The notes beneath the pieces were generated by a model. It saw only the letters and a program-made list of their open reading frames with translations. It made no database searches and was not told where the DNA came from. The position numbers and the translations under genes were made by a program. A DNA stretch of 64,000 bases from Bacteroidales bacterium (lineage in GTDB: Bacteria > Bacteroidota > Bacteroidia > Bacteroidales > Paludibacteraceae): the NCBI GenBank assembly GCA_012519885.1, contig JAAYPI010000009.1, positions 10,163-74,162 of the forward strand, given 5' to 3'. Of this stretch, positions 9,741 to 56,379 are shown piece by piece; the stretch's first letter is position 1; every line of letters starts with the position of its first letter.

Positions 9741-9752
9741 TGCTTTTATTTG

Positions 9753-9826
9753 TGACCGCGATAGGATTCAAACCTATAACCTTCTGATCCGTAGTCAGAT
9801 ACTCTATTCAGTTGAGCTACGCAGCC
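9753..9826 (-). tRNA. tRNA-Arg, anticodon ACG
   Basis: Minus strand: GGCTGCGTAGCTCAACTGAATAGAGTATCTGACTACGGATCAGAAGGTTATAGGTTTGAATCCTATCGCGGTCA. It folds as a cloverleaf: 7-bp acceptor stem with 2 GU pairs, anticodon stem TCTGA/TCAGA with loop CTACGGA, T arm ATAGG/CCTAT. CCA is not encoded. Confidence 0.9.
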
Positions 9827-9946: not shown

Positions 9947-12007
9947 TTAAGCTTGTATCATGTCGGCACTGCGTTTTACAAACTTACTCAAGGCTTCGCC
10001 TTTTAGCATATTATTAGCAAGTAAAGCCAAGTCAATCAGTTGTTTCACTACATTATTGCCGTCGGCAAAGTTGGCTAAAATCGCTTTTTGTTGCTCACGC
10101 AATGCATCCATTTCTTTACGCAAAGCGGCTTTCTCATCTTTTACTTCTTGAGGTAATTCATCTTCTTTTTTACCTTCGTTAGCCTTATTGATTTCCGCAA
10201 GTTTTGTGTCAATATCCGCAATGGTCTTGTCAAAATGTCCCATTTCTTTTCCGCAACTTTCTTCTTGTTGTTTGATAATACCTTTTACCAATGCATGGTC
10301 GGTATTTACAACCAGGTTGTACGAGTCGGGCATTTCGCTATAAAAACTCATCATGCCACCTTGCATTGCCGACATTTCTTTCATTCTACGCATAAATTCG
10401 TTTTGCGTAATCATCACTGGCAGTGCATTGGCACCCATGGCATCAAAAGCAACTATGTAGTTGGCTTTTTCTGTTTTGGGGGCTACGGTGCTAAATACAG
10501 TTGTAAGGTTTTGTTGTTGTTTTTCTGACAGTGATGTTTTTTTGCGGTCTTCTTTCTCAATCAAGTTGTCCACGCTATCGCTATCTACACGTACAAAACG
10601 CGATTTCTCCCATTTTTGTTCCAGTTTAGCAATTAAATGCACATCAAGCTGACCATCCATCAATAACACATCGTATCCCTTGTTTTTGGCTGCTTCGATG
10701 TAGCTAAATTGATCGTCCTTGTCGGTTGCATACAAGTAGATAATGTCTCCTTTTTTATCTGTTTGGTTTGTTTCAATCAGTTTTTTGTACTCCTCAGCAG
10801 TATAGCAGGTGTTATCTACATTTTTTAGTAAATTGAATGTTTCGGCTCTTTCGTAAAATTTATCATCAGTAAGCATCCCGTAATTGATAAATATTTTTAG
10901 GCTTTCCCATTTTTCTTCAAATAGAGCACGGTCAGTTTTAAACAAATCTTGCAACCTGTCAGCTACTTTTTTAGATATGTGCGATGATATTTTCTTCACA
11001 TTACCATCGCTTTGCAAGTACGATCGACTTACATTCAGCGGAATATCTGGAGAGTCGATAACTCCGTGCAATAGGGTTAAGAAATCGGGCACAATACCTT
11101 CTACTGAGTCGGTTACAAACACTTGGTTGCAATACAATTGAATTTTGTTTTTTTGCAAATCAATGGTATTTTTTACTTTTGGAAAGTATAATATCCCGGT
11201 TAGGTTAAACGGATAATCCACATTTAGGTGTATATGAAAGAGCGGATCTTCGCTCATAGGATACAAATCGCGGTAAAATTTGTTATAATCTTCGTCTTTC
11301 AAGTCGGCTGGTTTGCGTACCCAAGCTGGTTGTGTGTCGTTTATGATGTTATCTTCGTCCGTATCTACTTGTTTGCCATCTTTCCAATCCTTTTTTTTGC
11401 CAAAGGCAATGGGGATAGGTAAGAATTTGCAGTATTTAGTTAGCAATTCGTTTATTTTGCTTTGTTGCAAGAAGTCTTGGTTTTCGTCATCAATGTGCAA
11501 TACAATATCTGTACCTCTTTCTGCTTTATCGCAATTTTCTAATGTGTAATCGGGGTTACCTTCGCAACTCCATTTTACTGCTTGGCTATTTTCTTTGTAC
11601 GATTTGGTGATGATTTCCACCTTTTTGGCAACCATAAAAGAAGAGTAAAAACCCAAACCAAAATGCCCAATGATAGCGGCGGCATCGTTTTTGTATTTAT
11701 CTAAAAATTCTTCTGCTCCCGAAAAAGCAATTTGGTTGATATATTTATCAATTTCTTCGGCAGTCATACCAATACCTTTGTCAGAAATGGTAATGGTTTT
11801 GTTGGCTTCGTCTCTGGTAACACGCACAGTAATGTCGCCCAATTCACCTTTGTACTCGCCAACTGATGCCAATGTTTTTAGCTTTTGTGTAGCATCAACA
11901 GCATTAGAAACTAGTTCGCGTAAAAAGATTTCGTGGTCGCTGTAAAGAAATTTTTTAATGATAGGGAAAATGTTTTCCGTAGTTACACCAATATTTCCTT
12001 TTTTCAT
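9947..12007 (-). CDS. htpG: Molecular chaperone HtpG (Hsp90)
   Basis: Hsp90 N-terminal ATPase motifs (IFLRELVSNAVDA, GQFGLGFYS-type HFGLGFYS). The track start at 12013 is TTG. ATG 12007 gives MKKGNIGVTTENIF, typical of Bacteroidota HtpG. Confidence 0.92.
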   Translation of the reverse strand: MKKGNIGVTTENIFPIIKKFLYSDHEIFLRELVSNAVDATQKLKTLASVGEYKGELGDITVRVTRDEANKTITISDKGIGMTAEEIDKYINQIAFSGAEEFLDKYKNDAAAIIGHFGLGFYSSFMVAKKVEIITKSYKENSQAVKWSCEGNPDYTLENCDKAERGTDIVLHIDDENQDFLQQSKINELLTKYCKFLPIPIAFGKKKDWKDGKQVDTDEDNIINDTQPAWVRKPADLKDEDYNKFYRDLYPMSEDPLFHIHLNVDYPFNLTGILYFPKVKNTIDLQKNKIQLYCNQVFVTDSVEGIVPDFLTLLHGVIDSPDIPLNVSRSYLQSDGNVKKISSHISKKVADRLQDLFKTDRALFEEKWESLKIFINYGMLTDDKFYERAETFNLLKNVDNTCYTAEEYKKLIETNQTDKKGDIIYLYATDKDDQFSYIEAAKNKGYDVLLMDGQLDVHLIAKLEQKWEKSRFVRVDSDSVDNLIEKEDRKKTSLSEKQQQNLTTVFSTVAPKTEKANYIVAFDAMGANALPVMITQNEFMRRMKEMSAMQGGMMSFYSEMPDSYNLVVNTDHALVKGIIKQQEESCGKEMGHFDKTIADIDTKLAEINKANEGKKEDELPQEVKDEKAALRKEMDALREQQKAILANFADGNNVVKQLIDLALLANNMLKGEALSKFVKRSADMIQA

Positions 12008-49895: not shown

Positions 49896-50635
49896 TATCA
49901 GTATGTATCGCCACATATAATGGCTCAAAATATATCAAAGAACAATTGCAGTCAATTTTAAAACAATTGGGTGAGGAGGATGAAATTATTATTTCTGATG
50001 ATGGAAGTACTGATGATACCGTTAATATTATTAGAGGAATGTCTGATAATAGAATTAGAGTAGTAAACCATACGAAAGATGCTTCTTACAAAAACCTATC
50101 TGTTGCATCATTTTTGTTTGCGTCATATAATTTTGAAAATGCAATTATGCATGCCCGAGGTAATATTATTTATCTTTCAGATCAAGATGATGTGTGGGCT
50201 CCGGATAGGATAGAAAAAACGCTTCCATTGATGGAAAATAATGATTTGGTAATGTGTAATTTTTCTCTTATCGACGAGAATAGTACAAAGGTGTTAGAAA
50301 AATATTTATCAAAAGATCCAGCTGGGAAAACTTTATTTTGGAATTTATGGAAAATTCCTTTTAGAGGCTGTTGTATGACGATCAAACGTGAAGTCCTTTT
50401 ACAAAGTATGCCATTGCCTCCTCAATGTGTGTGTCATGATATATGGATTGGAACTTATTTGGTTCACAAAGGGTATAAATACACCTTTATTAATGAACCA
50501 TTACATTACTATCGAAGTCATACTACGAATGTATCACCTGTAGTTGGAAAAAGTCCTAATAGTTTATGGTTTAAACTAGCATATCGGTTAAGATATTTAA
50601 TACAAGTATTTACTCATAAATCCCTTGTTCAATAA
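49892..50635 (+). CDS. Glycosyltransferase family 2 (GT-A)
   Basis: ATG 49892 gives MISVCIATYNGSKYI...ISDDGSTD...DQDD. The track extension from 49853 overlaps the previous gene. Confidence 0.8.
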   Translation: MISVCIATYNGSKYIKEQLQSILKQLGEEDEIIISDDGSTDDTVNIIRGMSDNRIRVVNHTKDASYKNLSVASFLFASYNFENAIMHARGNIIYLSDQDDVWAPDRIEKTLPLMENNDLVMCNFSLIDENSTKVLEKYLSKDPAGKTLFWNLWKIPFRGCCMTIKREVLLQSMPLPPQCVCHDIWIGTYLVHKGYKYTFINEPLHYYRSHTTNVSPVVGKSPNSLWFKLAYRLRYLIQVFTHKSLVQ

Positions 50636-51804
50636 TGAAAATATGTTTGTTAACGCCCCGTTTCCCATTCCCTGAAAATGGAGGAGATGTGTTACGAATC
50701 AATAATATCGCACGTTATCTCAAATCGCAATCACATCAGTTGGTGTTAGTATCGTTTTATGATAACGAAATCGAAATCAATGACGAATGCAAAAGATTAT
50801 ATGATACTATTTATACTGTTCCTCGTAGTAATATAGTGTCAGCGATTAATTCTTTGCGTTTCTTGATGAGTGGTAAGCCTATACAATGTGGTTATTACTA
50901 TTCTGCACAATTATTAAGAATTTTTAAAAAAGTAGTTGAAACTGAGAAATGTGATTTATATATATCTCACTTGCTACGCATGACTCCTTATTTAGAAAAA
51001 TTAAATTTGCAAGATAAATCTATCGTCGAAATGACTGATGCTTTATCAAAAACCTATCAACGATCATCTGAAATAAAAGGAATTTCACTGAAAAAGATAA
51101 TATATAAATTTGAACAAGAATTCATTTTTAGGTATGAACAAAAAATTGTATATACTTTCAAAAAAGTAGTTTTAGTTTCTCGAAACGATATTCAGTATTT
51201 GAGTAAAAAAATAAAAAATAATACGAGTTTAAGCTTTCATACCAATGGGGTAGATTGTATCAATACCCATTTGTTGTCATATCAAAAAAACAAAATATGT
51301 TTTGTAGGTAATATGAGAACCATACAAAATCAAGATGCTGTTAAGTTTTTTGTAACTAGTATTTTGCCTTTAATAATGGAATCAGTGCCTGATGTGCGTT
51401 TTTATATCATAGGGGCTGAACCTCCAACAAGTATACGCAATTTAGCAGATGGTAAAAATATTTTTGTTACTGGATTTGTCGAATCTTTAGTTGAGTTTAT
51501 ACAAGATTCTTGTGTTGCAGTAGCTCCAATACGCATTGCTGCGGGTATTCAAAATAAAGTTTTGATTTCAATGGCTAGTGGTGTACCAATTGTTTTGTCA
51601 GAATTGATATCCAAAGCTATACCAGAATTAACTAATGGAACTAACTGTTTTATTGCAAATGATGCTATGGCGTTTGCAGATGCATGTATTAGGCTAATAA
51701 CAAATTCAGAGTTACGTAATCAGATTTCAACTGCTGGATACAATCTAGTTTTGAATAATTATTCATGGCAAGCATGTTTGGCTAATTACGAACAAATGAG
51801 ATAA
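50635..51804 (+). CDS. Glycosyltransferase family 4 (GT-B)
   Basis: MKICLLTPRFPFPENGGDVLRI... and C-terminal AAGIQNKVLISMASGVPIV. TAATG overlap with the upstream stop. Confidence 0.75.
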   Translation: MKICLLTPRFPFPENGGDVLRINNIARYLKSQSHQLVLVSFYDNEIEINDECKRLYDTIYTVPRSNIVSAINSLRFLMSGKPIQCGYYYSAQLLRIFKKVVETEKCDLYISHLLRMTPYLEKLNLQDKSIVEMTDALSKTYQRSSEIKGISLKKIIYKFEQEFIFRYEQKIVYTFKKVVLVSRNDIQYLSKKIKNNTSLSFHTNGVDCINTHLLSYQKNKICFVGNMRTIQNQDAVKFFVTSILPLIMESVPDVRFYIIGAEPPTSIRNLADGKNIFVTGFVESLVEFIQDSCVAVAPIRIAAGIQNKVLISMASGVPIVLSELISKAIPELTNGTNCFIANDAMAFADACIRLITNSELRNQISTAGYNLVLNNYSWQACLANYEQMR

Positions 51805-51917
51805 ACTGAATTGATATAATTTGGACATTTTGTAAAATTTATGTTAGATTATTGATCAATTAATATGGAATTTTGAAAAAAATAGGCTTACTTCTATTGT
51901 TTGTTAAAAAAAAACTG

Positions 51918-51925
51918 TATTTTTG
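51918..51925 (+). promoter_or_regulatory. -7 box TATTTTTG upstream of the phe/tyr leader
   Basis: TAnnTTTG 19 nt upstream of leader ATG 51944. Confidence 0.5.
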
Positions 51926-51943
51926 TGCCAGAATAATATTGAA

Positions 51944-52000
51944 ATGAGAAATTTTACTTTTACATACTTTTACTTTTATTTTTACTTTAGCAAAAAGTAA
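51944..52000 (+). CDS. Candidate 18-aa leader peptide, MRNFTFTYFYFYFYFSKK (Phe/Tyr regulatory codons)
   Basis: ATG to TAA, with 6 Phe and 4 Tyr codons including an uninterrupted YFYFYFYF run (51965..51988). It lies just upstream of the terminator and the aromatic amino-acid operon. Confidence 0.6.
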   Translation: MRNFTFTYFYFYFYFSKK

Positions 52001-52001
52001 A

Positions 52002-52076
52002 ACGGGGTTTGGTATGAAAAATGTAAACAATAACATAATAAGTAAGTAAATCCCGTCAAAATTGATGGGATTTTTT
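52002..52076 (+). promoter_or_regulatory. Attenuator RNA. Antiterminator helix: 52002..52010 with 52048..52056. It competes with the terminator helix: 52048..52057 with 52064..52073, plus a U tract.
   Basis: ACGGGGTTT is complementary to AAATCCCGT (8 Watson-Crick pairs and 1 GU). AAATCCCGTC pairs with GATGGGATTT (9 Watson-Crick pairs and 1 GU), with a 6-nt loop, followed by TTT then AATTTT. Confidence 0.55.
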
Positions 52077-52116
52077 AATTTTAAGCTACATAGATAACGA
52101 AATATAAACTAAAAAT

Positions 52117-52953
52117 ATGAAAACAGTTGCTATACAAGGTGTCGCAGGTTCTTTTCACGATATTGCAGCCCGCAATTTTTTTAAAGAACAAGAAATAAAG
52201 TTAGTGCCATGCGATTCGTTTAAAGAATTATTTGCGGTTATTAAAAAAGATAATTCAATTATAGGAGCAGTGGCAATTGAAAATACCATTGCAGGAAGTT
52301 TGTTGCCTAATCATACCTTGTTGCGCGAAAGTGGCTTTAAGATTGTTGGTGAATATAAATTACGTATAGAACATCAATTGGTGGCGATGCCAGGCCAAAC
52401 AATAAAAGATATTGAAAAAGTATATTCGCATCCTATAGCATTAATGCAGTGTGAGGATTTTTTAGTAGAACACCCTCATTTAGAGCCTGTTGAGAGCGAA
52501 GATACGGCGGCAAGTGCTAAATTAATAGCAGAAAAAAAGATTATGGGCAGAGCAGCGATTTGTAGCCGTTTAGCCGCTGAAATATATGGATTGGAAGTGT
52601 TGGCTGAAGGCATTGAAACAAACAAACGCAATTATACTCGGTTTTTAATTATAGCCGATTCGTGGTTAGCTGATGAAATGCTCAAGAATATAAAAGCGGA
52701 TAAATCATCCTTAGTTTTTTCATTGCCTCATGAGGAAGGTAGCCTAGCTAAAGTTCTATCCATTTTGTCGTATTATCACGTTAACTTAACCAAAATTCAG
52801 TCATTGCCTATTATTGGGAGAGAATGGGAATACATGTTTTATATCAATTTAACATTCGATAATTACATGCGTTATCGACAAGCATTAGATGCTATTCGTC
52901 CATTTACCAAAGATCTACAGTTATTAGGAGAATATAAAGCTTTTGAAGGATAA
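52117..52953 (+). CDS. pheA: Prephenate dehydratase with a C-terminal ACT domain
   Basis: 278 aa, PDT domain (IQGVAGSFHD...ENTIAGS), TRF motif (NYTRFLII), and ACT (SLVFSLPHEEGSLAKVL). Confidence 0.88.
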   Translation: MKTVAIQGVAGSFHDIAARNFFKEQEIKLVPCDSFKELFAVIKKDNSIIGAVAIENTIAGSLLPNHTLLRESGFKIVGEYKLRIEHQLVAMPGQTIKDIEKVYSHPIALMQCEDFLVEHPHLEPVESEDTAASAKLIAEKKIMGRAAICSRLAAEIYGLEVLAEGIETNKRNYTRFLIIADSWLADEMLKNIKADKSSLVFSLPHEEGSLAKVLSILSYYHVNLTKIQSLPIIGREWEYMFYINLTFDNYMRYRQALDAIRPFTKDLQLLGEYKAFEG

Positions 52954-52957
52954 AAAT

Positions 52958-54127
52958 ATGATGAAGATACAACCAGCCAATCGATTAAATGAAGTATCAG
53001 AATACTATTTCTCACGTAAGTTAAAAGAAATAGCCCAAATGAATGCAGCAGGCATGAATGTTATAAGTTTGGGAATTGGTAGCCCCGATATGCCACCATC
53101 AGAAAGCACGATTGAAACCTTAGCCCAGGTAGCAAAAATGCCCAACACCCATGGCTACCAGCCAACAATAGGTATCCCAGAGTTAAGAAAAGCCTTTGCT
53201 GATTGGTATGTACGTTGGTATGGAGTGCAACTAGATGCAAACAGCGAGATACAACCGCTAATTGGATCAAAAGAAGGTATTTTGCATGTTACTTTGGCGT
53301 TTGTTAATCCAGGCGAAAAAGTACTAGTGCCAAACCCTGGTTATCCAACCTATACTTCGCTTAGTAAATTGTTGGGTGCAGAGGTTGTACAATACGATTT
53401 ATGTGAAGATAAAGGCTGGGAACCCGATTTTGAAGCATTACAAAAAATGGACTTATCAAATGTAAAACTCATGTGGACAAATTATCCAAATATGCCAACA
53501 GGAGCCAACGCAAGTATAAGTTTATACCAGAAAATTGTAGATTTTGCCAAAAAGAATGCTATTGTAGTAGTAAACGATAATCCATACAGTTTTATTTTAA
53601 ACAACAAACCGCTAAGTATTTTACAAATAGAAGGGGCAAAAGAATGTTGTATAGAATTTAATTCGTTGAGCAAAAGTCATAATATGCCTGGTTGGCGTAT
53701 TGGTATGATTGCTGCAAATCCAACGTTTATCGAATGGATTGTACGGGTGAAAAGTAATATAGATTCTGGAACATTTAGAGCAATGCAATTGGCTGCAGTA
53801 CAAGCACTTTCTAATACAAACGATTGGCATAAAGAAATGAATATTGATGTATATCAGTCGCGTAGAGATATTGCTGGAAAAATTATGAATGCTCTTAATT
53901 GTAGTTATGATGATACGCAAGTAGGAATGTTTTTATGGGGAAAAGTGCCTGATAATGCCCTATCGGCTGAAGAAATTACAGAAAAAGTATTGCATGAAGC
54001 CAAGGTTTTTATTACTCCTGGGTTTATTTTTGGAAGCAATGGCGAACGATATATACGTATTTCCTTGTGTGCTACACAAGCCATGCTCGAAGAAGCATTA
54101 AATAGAATTCAATTAATAATCAAATAA
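52958..54127 (+). CDS. Class I/II pyridoxal-phosphate aminotransferase (probable aromatic/prephenate aminotransferase)
   Basis: PLP-lysine motif NSLSKSHNMPGWRIG. It sits in the phe/tyr operon. The track start at 52943 is TTG. Confidence 0.8.
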   Translation: MMKIQPANRLNEVSEYYFSRKLKEIAQMNAAGMNVISLGIGSPDMPPSESTIETLAQVAKMPNTHGYQPTIGIPELRKAFADWYVRWYGVQLDANSEIQPLIGSKEGILHVTLAFVNPGEKVLVPNPGYPTYTSLSKLLGAEVVQYDLCEDKGWEPDFEALQKMDLSNVKLMWTNYPNMPTGANASISLYQKIVDFAKKNAIVVVNDNPYSFILNNKPLSILQIEGAKECCIEFNSLSKSHNMPGWRIGMIAANPTFIEWIVRVKSNIDSGTFRAMQLAAVQALSNTNDWHKEMNIDVYQSRRDIAGKIMNALNCSYDDTQVGMFLWGKVPDNALSAEEITEKVLHEAKVFITPGFIFGSNGERYIRISLCATQAMLEEALNRIQLIIK

Positions 54128-54140
54128 AAAATATAAAAAC

Positions 54141-55208
54141 ATGAACGATTTACAATCAATATTATTACCTGGTATTGAGTCGAAACGACCGATAGTAATA
54201 GCCGGACCTTGCAGTGCCGAAACAGAAGAGCAAGTAATGGATACAGCCAAACAATTGGCGAAAAATGGGATAAAAATATACAGAGCAGGAATATGGAAAC
54301 CTAGAACAAAACCTGGAGGATTTGAAGGTATAGGAGAAATTGGTTTACCTTGGTTACAAAAAGTAAAAGAAGAAACAGGTATGTATGTATCTACCGAAGT
54401 AGCTACTGCCAAACACGTAGAAGCTGCATTGAAAGCTGGTATTGATATACTCTGGGTAGGTGCACGAACTTCTGCTAATCCTTTTGCTGTACAAGAAATT
54501 GCCGATTCATTGAAAGGAGTGGATATACCTGTGTTGATAAAAAACCCCGTTAATCCAGATTTAGATTTATGGATTGGTGCTATTGAACGTATTTATAATG
54601 CAGGAATTAGAAAATTAGGAGCTATCCACAGAGGATTTAGTTCGTATGATAAAAAAATATACCGTAATTTACCTCAATGGCATATTCCAATCGAACTACA
54701 TCGCCGTTTGCCTAATATGCCAATTATTTGCGATCCAAGCCATGTTGGAGGAAGAAGAGAATTGATTGCATCGATTAGTCAACAAGCTATGGATTTAAGT
54801 TTTGATGGTTTAATTATTGAATCACACATTTGCCCTGATAAGGCATGGAGCGATGCTTCGCAACAAATAACGCCAGATATTTTACAATTTATAATCAATA
54901 AATTGGTAATTAGAGAGGGTGTTCAAACAACGGAAAGTTTGGCCGATTTACGTTTGCAAATAGACAATATTGATAATGATTTATTAGAAATGTTATCTAA
55001 ACGTATGCGTATATCGCGTGAGATAGGCACATTTAAAAAAGAGCATAATATGCCTGTATTACAAGCCAATCGTTACGATGAGATTATGCAAAAACGTGTA
55101 ATTCTTGGTGAGTCAATGGGTATGTCCCCCGAATTTGTAACTAAAATATTGGAAGCAATACACGAAGAATCAGTGCGTCAACAAATAGATGTGATTAACT
55201 CTAAGTAA
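54141..55208 (+). CDS. Bifunctional 3-deoxy-7-phosphoheptulonate (DAHP) synthase / chorismate mutase type II
   Basis: N-terminal type I-beta DAHPS (IAGPCSAE...KPRT...CDPSH) and C-terminal CM_2 (LRLQIDNIDNDLLEMLSKRMRISREIGTFK). Confidence 0.88.
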   Translation: MNDLQSILLPGIESKRPIVIAGPCSAETEEQVMDTAKQLAKNGIKIYRAGIWKPRTKPGGFEGIGEIGLPWLQKVKEETGMYVSTEVATAKHVEAALKAGIDILWVGARTSANPFAVQEIADSLKGVDIPVLIKNPVNPDLDLWIGAIERIYNAGIRKLGAIHRGFSSYDKKIYRNLPQWHIPIELHRRLPNMPIICDPSHVGGRRELIASISQQAMDLSFDGLIIESHICPDKAWSDASQQITPDILQFIINKLVIREGVQTTESLADLRLQIDNIDNDLLEMLSKRMRISREIGTFKKEHNMPVLQANRYDEIMQKRVILGESMGMSPEFVTKILEAIHEESVRQQIDVINSK

Positions 55209-55228: not shown

Positions 55229-56002
55229 ATGAAAATTCTCATATTAGGTGCAGGTAAAATGGGTACATTCTTTTGTGATGTATTATGTACCCAACACAAA
55301 GTTGCTATTTTTGATACTAATCCTAAAAATTTACGTTTTGTATTTAATACCTACCGCCTTACACAATATGATGAAATTGCGGAATTTGCCCCAGAACTAG
55401 TTATTAATGCGGTAACACTCAAACATACCATTGATGCATTTCAAGCAGTAATTGCTTATTTGCCAAGTACGTGTATTTTGTCGGATATCGCGTCTGTAAA
55501 AACAGGTTTGCAGGAGTTTTATGCATCTACTGGTATGCGATATGTATCCACTCATCCAATGTTTGGACCCACATTTGCAAATTTGGAAGATTTGAGTGCG
55601 CAAAGTGCCATTATTATTTCCGAATCCGATCACATGGGAAAAGCATTTTTTAAAGACTTATATCAAAGTTTAAAATTGCAAATTTTTGAATATACGTTTT
55701 TAGAACATGATGAAACCATTGCCTATTCGTTGTCTATCCCCTTTGCATCTACCATTGTATTTGCTGCAGTAATGAAACATCAAGATGCTCCAGGTACAAC
55801 GTTCAAAAGACACTTAGCCATTGCAAGAGGATTATTTGCCGAAGATGATTATTTGCTTTCAGAAATTTTGTTTAACCCTTTTACACCTTCGCAAGTAGAG
55901 AAAATTCGTGGCGAATTGAAGTTTTTACTAGAAATTATTGAACAAAAAGATTCAAAAGCAATGCATTCATATTTGCAGAAATTGCGAGAAAATATTCAAT
56001 AA
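55229..56002 (+). CDS. tyrA: Prephenate dehydrogenase
   Basis: Rossmann ILILGAGKMG, catalytic region SVK...VSTHPMFGP. Confidence 0.82.
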   Translation: MKILILGAGKMGTFFCDVLCTQHKVAIFDTNPKNLRFVFNTYRLTQYDEIAEFAPELVINAVTLKHTIDAFQAVIAYLPSTCILSDIASVKTGLQEFYASTGMRYVSTHPMFGPTFANLEDLSAQSAIIISESDHMGKAFFKDLYQSLKLQIFEYTFLEHDETIAYSLSIPFASTIVFAAVMKHQDAPGTTFKRHLAIARGLFAEDDYLLSEILFNPFTPSQVEKIRGELKFLLEIIEQKDSKAMHSYLQKLRENIQ

Positions 56003-56082: not shown

Positions 56083-56379
56083 ATGAAAAAATTACTACTC
56101 TACATATTGCTCTCTTTTGCGGTGGTTGGGGTGTATGCTACTACCGAAAAAAAGCCCGTAAATACGGTGCAAGAAACGCAACAAGAAGTTGTTTCAGTAG
56201 TGGGTAATAAGGTATATATTACAGCTAAGGCAGGAGAAGAAATAAACATATTTGCTCTTACTGGTCAAAATGTATATCGTACTCTTTCCGAAGGAGGGGT
56301 GTTGGTGGTCGAAGATTTACCTACAAACCAAATTTTAGTAGTACGTATTGGAGCCAAAGCTTATAAAGTGAAATTATAA
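56083..56379 (+). CDS. Small secreted protein consisting of little more than a T9SS-CTD-like beta-sandwich
   Basis: Signal peptide MKKLLLYILLSFAVVGVYA. The remainder (VVGNKVYITAKAGEEINIFALTGQNVYRTLSEGGVLVVEDLPTNQILVVRIGAKAYKVKL) resembles a Por C-terminal sorting domain. Confidence 0.5.
   Translation: MKKLLLYILLSFAVVGVYATTEKKPVNTVQETQQEVVSVVGNKVYITAKAGEEINIFALTGQNVYRTLSEGGVLVVEDLPTNQILVVRIGAKAYKVKL

Follow-up and report, generated by a model that had tools for sequence, protein, structure and literature searches.

A predicted Phe/Tyr leader-peptide attenuator upstream of the pheA–tyrA operon in Bacteroidales

The 64,000-nucleotide stretch of DNA analysed here (the window: positions 10,163 to 74,162 of contig JAAYPI010000009.1, from the Paludibacteraceae genome GCA_012519885.1) carries, ahead of the prephenate dehydratase gene pheA, a leader whose short open reading frame (ORF) is rich in phenylalanine (Phe, F) and tyrosine (Tyr, Y) codons and is followed by two mutually exclusive RNA helices. 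We read this leader, with a probability of roughly 85%, as a ribosome-mediated (leader-peptide) transcription attenuator of an operon encoding pheA, an aminotransferase, a fusion of 3-deoxy-D-arabino-heptulosonate 7-phosphate (DAHP) synthase with chorismate mutase, and tyrA, and as a device responding to the charging of both Phe and Tyr transfer RNAs (tRNAs). The reading draws on the sequence elements themselves, on the exclusivity and energies of the helices they form, and on conservation, covariation and spacing in relatives. The leader element is more than a chance occurrence and is strongly conserved in Bacteroidales.

The leader ORF starts at the ATG at 51944, and its 18 codons, closed by a TAA stop (51998..52000), encode the peptide MRNFTFTYFYFYFYFSKK, with 6 Phe and 4 Tyr residues, including an unbroken YFYFYFYF run at codons 8–15. 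The first-pass annotation of this stretch had described the ORF with its composition and run, a TAnnTTTG −7 box before it, a terminator between its stop and pheA, and an antiterminator pairing that excludes the terminator; all four elements hold up against the sequence, a terminator scan, covariation and shuffled controls, the coordinates and counts given for them agree with the sequence throughout, and the coordinates are collected in the table below. A scan with the prephenate dehydratase (PDT) protein over one genome per GTDB species yielded 80 pheA loci. The best match, at 99% identity, belongs to a metagenome-assembled genome (MAG) of Paludibacteraceae, and the other loci come from Paludibacteraceae, Candidatus Enterocola, Paludibacter, Parabacteroides, Tannerella, Phocaeicola, Bacteroidaceae, Prevotellaceae and Saccharicrinis, all of them genomes of Bacteroidales or Marinilabiliales. 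With one locus lacking upstream sequence (L034) set aside, 79 are informative, and 78 of these have an ATG-initiated mini-ORF of 16–31 codons with an F/Y run just 5' of pheA, examples being MINRFFTYFYFYFYFSR, MKSLFNAYYYFYFYFGNK and MTRFSFTYYFYYFYFYSKVKAGVCM; among the 79, the mini-ORF was not found at L050 only, where pheA abuts another coding region. One more example, beyond the 79, lies in a sequencing-run assembly, 3' of a relA/spoT-like gene. Scanning the window for other mini-ORFs with amino-acid runs returned noise only.

The relatives' leaders contain on average 5.7 Phe and 4.2 Tyr residues. Across the 67 distinct ORFs synonymous codons are mixed (TTT 334, TTC 49, TAC 187, TAT 93), and the residues stay Phe or Tyr; the use of both synonymous codons under fixed amino acids is evidence that the run serves as coding sequence. 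In the F/Y frame the run can be read from an ATG without a stop in all 73 distinct leaders, which were built on that frame and hence have an ATG there by construction; the other two frames allow this in 1 and 0 leaders. Within the peptide only the F/Y run is conserved, the ends, the length (16–31 residues) and the position of the stop being variable and the RNA motif kept.

Downstream of the ORF, a terminator scan of 51500..52500 finds a single site, 52048..52073, whose stem of 11 pairs includes 4 G-C pairs and closes a 4-nt loop; a T tract follows. It begins 47 nt past the leader stop and ends 40 nt short of the pheA ATG at 52117, the same spacing as in the first-pass annotation. The hairpin is present in all leaders analysed. 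In an alignment of the 73 distinct leaders, running from the ATG to the U tract, 95.9% of the terminator cells (columns 148–158 with 173–183) are paired, against 33–55% in slid registers. Double changes occur in 95 cells and in 8 of the 11 pairs, a result matched by none of 500 shuffles, and RNAalifold independently recovers the terminator from the alignment, with 8 covarying pairs.

The 5' arm of the terminator has a second potential partner beside the leader stop codon. Segment 2 (ACGGGGTTT) is complementary to this arm, segment 3 (AAATCCCGT), over 9 bp with one G-U pair, and the sharing of segment 3 makes antiterminator and terminator mutually exclusive. The best duplex between the spacer following the ORF and the terminator 5' arm has an energy of −13.9 kcal/mol against −6.8 ± 1.9 in dinucleotide shuffles, and a duplex as good as this arises in 0.05% of 2000 shuffles. 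The pairs of the antiterminator, as those of the helix upstream of it, were specified and counted explicitly or folded sequence by sequence. Counted in this way, 84.6% of the antiterminator cells (columns 81–91 with 148–158) are paired, compared with 34–55% in slid registers, and 75 cells bear double changes, compared with 23.5 ± 10.6 in shuffles, of which 0 of 500 reach the observed value. The 7-bp core of the antiterminator is almost never unpaired: columns 85 and 154 form 36 A-U, 36 G-C and 1 G-U pairs, columns 83 and 156 form 55 G-C and 18 A-U pairs, three further core pairs are invariant, and each of these five is paired in every one of the 73 leaders. Where the terminator arm changes from CCCGT to CCTGCTC, CCCGCTC, CCTGCC or CCTGTC, the strand beside the stop changes correspondingly from ACGGG to GAGCAGG, GAGCGGG, GGCAGG or GACAGG. 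The relatives thus supply both kinds of support that the first-pass annotation had looked to them for, a conserved mini-ORF and compensatory changes in both helices.

A third helix was absent from that description. In minimum-energy folds the F/Y codons pair with 51994..52027, a stretch containing the antiterminator strand, and form a 1:2 hairpin that would act as an anti-antiterminator and possibly as a pause hairpin. At least 4 of the 7 nucleotides of the antiterminator core are paired with leader codons in the pre-terminator fold of 71 out of 73 relatives, and pairing in the outer stem (UUUACAUA with UAUGUAAA) reaches 79%, compared with 29–68% in slid registers. Covariation of the 1:2 helix is weaker than that of the other two helices. 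The pairing of the F/Y codons with the antiterminator strand completes the classical four-segment design.

The double engagement of the run leaves room for a version of the same attenuator that senses Phe only, the Tyr codons (UAC/UAU) being structural, with UUUUAC repeats complementing the purine-rich GUAAAA/GUGAGA of segment 2. Consistent with such a version, the F/Y run supplies the 5' arm of the 1:2 helix, which is conserved, its last UAC-UUU-UAC-UUU is near-invariant at the nucleotide level, the first gene of the operon is pheA, and two relatives (L035 and L038) have Phe-only leaders. Yet the Tyr residues are conserved while their codon varies between TAC and TAT, which argues for selection on codon identity and not on pairing alone. 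The leaders also average more than four Tyr residues, the operon contains tyrA, and any Tyr codon in the run, whatever its selective origin, would stall a ribosome when Tyr-tRNA is scarce. Sensing of Phe alone is on this balance unlikely.

The spacing of the elements is consistent with control by a ribosome. In none of the 73 leaders does the antiterminator core extend more than 7 nt beyond the end of the stop codon; in 18 of them the leader ORF reads through the core, and in 69 of the 73 the core starts 10–13 nt after the last F/Y codon. A ribosome shields about 12–15 nt 3' of its A-site codon. Under the footprint assumed here, this spacing implies that segment 2 is covered by a terminating ribosome and left exposed by one stalled in the run. 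Folds of the leader under such constraints agree. A ribosome on the stop codon permits the terminator only; for a ribosome placed at codon 9 the fold of lowest energy is the antiterminator (−18.4 kcal/mol), and for one at codon 11 the terminator stands at −18.1 kcal/mol, the two states being nearly isoenergetic. The antiterminator is also the minimum-energy structure of a transcript ending at 52058, before segment 4 is made, and is thereby competitive. The whole leader folds at −32.0 kcal/mol (z = −3.96). The first-pass annotation had reasoned that a ribosome reaching the stop would occlude segment 2 and let the terminator form, and that a ribosome stalled in the F/Y run would leave segment 2 free; the folds and the spacing bear out both steps.

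In the mechanism we propose, transcription would begin a few nucleotides past the TAnnTTTG box, and the 18-codon leader would be translated behind the advancing RNA polymerase. With ample Phe-tRNA and Tyr-tRNA, the ribosome would reach the TAA, its footprint would mask segment 2, segments 3 and 4 would pair, and the resulting terminator would stop transcription 40 nt ahead of pheA. If either charged tRNA were scarce, the ribosome would stall in the run, melting the 1:2 hairpin and freeing segment 2, which would then pair with segment 3 before segment 4 is made; no terminator would form, and the operon would be transcribed. If the leader were not translated at all, the 1:2 hairpin would sequester segment 2, and termination would follow by default.

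Several observations weigh against this reading of the leader. In the naked full-length leader the off state, with 1:2 and 3:4 paired, has −32.0 kcal/mol and the forced antiterminator −23.4 kcal/mol, a difference of about 8.6 kcal/mol. The terminator state is therefore favoured at equilibrium, and the switch must work kinetically, as in trpL. The equilibrium fold of the transcript cut at 52058 is the antiterminator also with no ribosome present, so default termination requires the 1:2 hairpin to form first as the RNA is being made. RNAalifold applied to the alignment by itself returned the terminator only, and neither the antiterminator nor the 1:2 helix. The 5' untranslated region deduced from the promoter is short, about 12–14 nt. 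Five rumen relatives have the hairpin but a degenerate U tract, and the Phe-only leaders of two relatives indicate that Tyr codons are not universal. Finally, translation of the leader, stalling at its Phe and Tyr codons, a transcript 3' end near 52076 and a response to the two amino acids are all deduced from sequence.

The leaders vary in several ways among lineages. The Phe-only leaders (MKHFFFTSFCFFFFFFF...) are situated 5' of pheA at L035:1351-1483 and L038:1348-1482, in Candidatus Gallipaludibacter and a related MAG. In Parabacteroides and Tannerella (L032, L037, L039, L057, L059 and L068) and in Phocaeicola and Bacteroidaceae (L067, L069 and L078) the leader ORF spans the antiterminator strand (ending, for example, in ...SKVKAGVCM or ...EVKREVVCVPYK) and stops further 3'. 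The RNA motif GUAAAGGCAGGAGUUUGUAUGUAA is kept in these read-through leaders, which points to conservation at the RNA level and flexibility in the position of the stop codon. The five rumen relatives (L072, L073, L075, L076 and L080, around positions 1345–1490) are Bacteroidaceae and Prevotellaceae MAGs in which F/Y leader and antiterminator strand are retained, together with a hairpin rich in G-C (AGCCCCGCTC..GAGTGGGGCT). Their U tract is CUUAUACAUU, and only about 20 nt separate the hairpin from the pheA ATG; the hairpin may be a weakened or non-canonical terminator, or may serve a different read-out. At L061 (around 1350–1500) tandem GCGATT(C/T)A-like units and CGCAGAAA repeats lie between attenuator and pheA and extend the spacer to about 160 nt.

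The promoter ties the leader to pheA. Of 75 leaders (those of 74 loci and that of the window), 71 have a TAnnTTTG box in the 80 nt 5' of the mini-ORF, typically 18–38 nt ahead of the ATG; by background frequency alone, about 5% would have one. A possible −33 element in the window fits the Bacteroidota sigma-A-type promoter, with an imperfect spacing of 14–18 nt to the −7 box; a TTG or TTTG occurs in the −33 zone of most relatives. By analogy with the mapped start site of Flavobacterium psychrophilum pheA, transcription would start at about 51930–51932. No homologue of the glycosyltransferase gene upstream of the leader in the window was found among the pheA loci; the aminotransferase follows pheA in 77 of them. 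Sequence shared with the 99%-identical strain (L001) begins at 51892, in the −33 region, and the gene upstream in that strain is a different one. With upstream genes differing between loci and homology setting in at the promoter, the unit of promoter, leader and terminator belongs to pheA.

This association bears on the simplest alternative, by which the hairpin just ends transcription of the upstream glycosyltransferase gene or insulates constitutively, and the mini-ORF is a chance T-rich product or a hydrophobic peptide with its own function. T-rich short ORFs are indeed common in an AT-rich genome, and the hairpin does lie downstream of a gene on the same strand. Against this, the upstream genes vary by locus while promoter, leader and terminator always travel with pheA; the promoter box stands between upstream gene and leader; covariation of the antiterminator would have no role; and selection on a functional peptide sits poorly with the conservation of its F/Y run only, in leaders whose RNA motif is kept. 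The hairpin as terminator of the glycosyltransferase gene was rejected on the grounds that upstream genes are unrelated between loci and that L001 homology begins at the promoter, and we regard the alternative as a whole as scarcely credible.

Window positions 50635-51892 and L001:1-1275 each carry a group-1 glycosyltransferase gene, the two being unrelated, a pattern that points to a polysaccharide locus varying between strains, with its end exactly at the pheA promoter. L001 and a second locus, L002, both come from MAG Go_Prim_bin_112, in which two contigs each contain pheA with a leader (99% and 89% protein identity to the window), so that the bin probably mixes two related populations.

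Coordinates of the attenuator, its promoter and the operon genes in the window
Feature	Position	Strand	Basis
Possible −33 element TTGTTTG, Bacteroidota sigma-A-type promoter	51897..51903	+	Sequence; TTG/TTTG in the −33 zone of most relatives
−7 box TATTTTTG, fitting TAnnTTTG	51918..51925	+	Sequence; 18 nt between box and ATG
Leader ORF, 18 codons and TAA, peptide MRNFTFTYFYFYFYFSKK	51944..52000	+	Read from sequence; conserved in relatives
1:2 hairpin (anti-antiterminator, possibly pause hairpin), F/Y codons 51953..51988 with 51994..52027	51953..52027	+	Minimum-energy folds
YFYFYFYF regulatory run, codons 8–15; putative stall sites and part of the 5' arm of the 1:2 helix	51965..51988	+	Sequence
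Segment 2, antiterminator 5' strand ACGGGGTTT	52002..52010	+	Complementarity and covariation with 52048..52056
Segment 3, terminator 5' arm shared with the antiterminator, AAATCCCGT	52048..52056	+	Terminator scan, covariation
Intrinsic terminator (segments 3:4), 11-bp stem, 4-nt loop, U tract 52071..52076, −13.6 kcal/mol	52048..52076	+	Terminator scan, energy, covariation
pheA, prephenate dehydratase, first regulated gene	52117..52953	+	Pfam PF00800, E = 6e-57
Class I/II aminotransferase (hisHb/aspC type), 11-nt overlap with pheA	52943..54127	+	Pfam PF00155
DAHP synthase–chorismate mutase fusion	54141..55208	+	Pfam PF00793 and PF01817 (CM_2)
tyrA-type prephenate dehydrogenase	55229..56002	+	Pfam PF02153, E = 1.4e-7

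The operon makes both Phe and Tyr: Pfam domains identify a PDT, an aminotransferase, a DAHP synthase–chorismate mutase and a prephenate dehydrogenase, and the first-pass suggestion that mixed Phe and Tyr codons would fit such an operon is sound in this respect. An ORF of 98 codons at 56083-56379 (+), directly after tyrA, has no Pfam match and may be a fifth gene of the operon or spurious.

We compared the region with known RNA families by cmscan against Rfam 15, applying a permissive threshold (E <= 10) to 51000..53000 and gathering scores to the whole window. No Rfam family covers the leader at gathering score in the window, and no T-box, riboswitch or Bacteroid-trp leader, the last of which is included in Rfam, matches 51000..53000 at E <= 10. 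Phe_leader (RF01859) reaches 18.5 bits (E = 6.3) against a gathering score of 55, with the terminator hairpin alone aligned. A score so far below gathering indicates that the leader is not a member of the proteobacterial pheL family, though it would work in the same way. The only Rfam or ARAGORN match in the 64-kb window is a tRNA-Arg (anticodon ACG) at 9752-9826 (−).

The same search bears on the possibility that the helices are real but answer to something other than a translating ribosome: a bound protein (as with TRAP or PyrR), a small ligand (riboswitches) or an uncharged tRNA (T-boxes), the mini-ORF being incidental. Segments 2 and 4 are direct repeats, readable as repeated binding sites, and translation of the leader is itself a deduction. 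If the ORF were incidental, however, its ATG, its frame, its F/Y content and its stop would not recur in 78 of 79 loci, nor would the stop stay within 7 nt of the antiterminator core. At E <= 10 over 51000..53000, the terminator half of Phe_leader is the only Rfam match, with T-box and riboswitch families among those that gave none, and the leaders have no conserved aptamer-like structured domain besides the three helices. A sensor other than the ribosome is thus very improbable, and attenuation by a translating ribosome is the reading we carry forward.

What the present analysis adds is evidence at the level of a family: the leader in 78 of 79 loci, covariation of terminator and antiterminator, support for the 1:2 pairing, the spacing between stop codon and antiterminator, and the doubling of the alternating Tyr/Phe run as the anti-antiterminator arm. 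The novelty is mild and confined to the bivalence of the Phe/Tyr run and the absence of a curated family for such leaders. We judge the odds about even that the leader represents a phylum-wide Bacteroidota RNA family outside Rfam, a bivalent attenuator in which (UAC UUU)n senses both Tyr-tRNA and Phe-tRNA and also provides the 5' arm of the anti-antiterminator. If so, the run would be both decoded and paired, and its codon choice would be constrained by decoding and RNA pairing at once; the leader peptide would also be, to our knowledge, the first in which Tyr codons are regulatory. A protein search for other classes of Bacteroidota gave close relatives only among its best 120 matches, so that the published F. 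psychrophilum sequence discussed below is the basis for extending the leader past Bacteroidales and Marinilabiliales. The switch is of a classical kind and extends the concept of multivalent attenuation to the Phe/Tyr pair; it changes no paradigm and should not surprise a specialist. It provides a regulatory annotation (promoter, leader ORF and attenuator) for an operon layout that is widespread in gut and environmental Bacteroidales and whose cis-regulation is poorly charted, and the alignment of 73 sequences suffices to seed an Rfam family for automatic annotation of such leaders. The leader is also a predicted natural Phe/Tyr-responsive switch for synthetic biology in Bacteroides, and would allow tests of the coupling of ribosome and RNA polymerase in a phylum whose translation initiation is not based on Shine-Dalgarno pairing.

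The first-pass annotation had left it undecided whether such a leader is catalogued. The element is absent from Rfam 15, but an attenuator before pheA is already known as a computational prediction in two related bacteria, Bacteroides thetaiotaomicron (PMC1173090) and F. psychrophilum (PMC9723704). Guerin et al. 2021 (PMC9723704) list a leader of the F. psychrophilum pheA-aspC3 operon, THC0290_N_0195, with a predicted leader peptide in their Table S7. They report that the region 5' of pheA is transcribed from a mapped start site, with read-through under specific conditions and maximal expression of the operon in minimal media, and that the element is conserved in other Flavobacteriaceae and has no Rfam match. 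Their transcriptomes give the attenuator reading independent, indirect support. That leader encodes MNTNNTFYSNNSFYFYWNIGRDCYMVI, followed by GGGATTG...CAATCCCG...CGGGATTTTTT. Like the window leader it precedes an orthologous pheA-aminotransferase operon in the same phylum and has FY repeats (...FYSNNSFYFYW...), a segment 2 GGGATTG, a spacer and a terminator, AATCCCGTC..GGCGGGATTTTTTT, which is near-identical to that of one of our loci (L003). Compared by eye, the window leader fits this layout of an FY-repeat ORF, a GGGAT-type segment 2 and an AATCCCG...CGGGATTTTTT terminator, and a profile of our alignment (nhmmer) aligns to the published 171-nt leader with 22.3 bits and high compositional bias. 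The two leaders are likely homologous, judging from these sequence similarities. They differ in that F. psychrophilum belongs to Flavobacteriia and not Bacteroidia, and in that its leader peptide has 27 residues and a shorter, interrupted F/Y run, with the ORF continuing through segment 2. The published leader was annotated from transcriptome profiles in a supplementary table, without covariation or family-level analysis.

For B. thetaiotaomicron, Song et al. 2005 (PMC1173090, Table 7) give, from the Merino attenuator database, a putative attenuator before pheA>hisHb>aroA(I-beta)-aroQ>tyrA. The gene order in this table is identical to that in the window, and a terminator and antiterminator are predicted before it; the entry is a database listing, and the text cited with it carries no leader-peptide description. 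The leader is present at the Phocaeicola and Bacteroidaceae loci of the present set. In Ryan et al. 2020, leader-like small ORFs of B. thetaiotaomicron are mentioned generically only, and a search of their supplements found neither the leader peptide nor the pheA gene. Literature on Term-seq and ribosome profiling in Bacteroides and on leader peptides with tyrosine codons yielded nothing relevant. The Bacteroid-trp leader, identified by comparative genomics (Weinberg et al. 2010, PMC2864571), is likewise a leader-peptide attenuator of an aromatic amino-acid operon in Bacteroidota; it differs in having Trp codons, in preceding the trp operon and in being an unrelated RNA, with no match to the window region.

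A close parallel outside the phylum is pheL-pheA of E. coli and other gamma-proteobacteria. Both have a short leader ORF rich in Phe codons before pheA, an exclusive terminator and antiterminator, a 1:2 helix and, in the mechanism proposed here, the same logic of sensing by a ribosome. The two share no homology in sequence or structure. In addition, pheL uses Phe codons only, whereas the run in the window alternates Tyr and Phe, the operon in the window also contains the DAHP synthase–chorismate mutase and tyrA, its promoter is of the Bacteroidota type, and its translation would start without reliance on a Shine-Dalgarno sequence.

Leaders with mixed codons are known from enterobacteria, where thrL (Thr and Ile) and ilvL/ivbL (Ile, Leu and Val) respond to several amino acids, starvation for any of them de-attenuating the shared operon. 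The window leader resembles these in joining codons of several amino acids in one leader peptide, and differs in the amino acids, in the lineage and in the strict (UAC UUU)n alternation, absent from thrL, ilvL and ivbL, that also builds the 1:2 helix. By analogy with thrL and ilvL, bivalent sensing of Phe and Tyr by a single leader is plausible.

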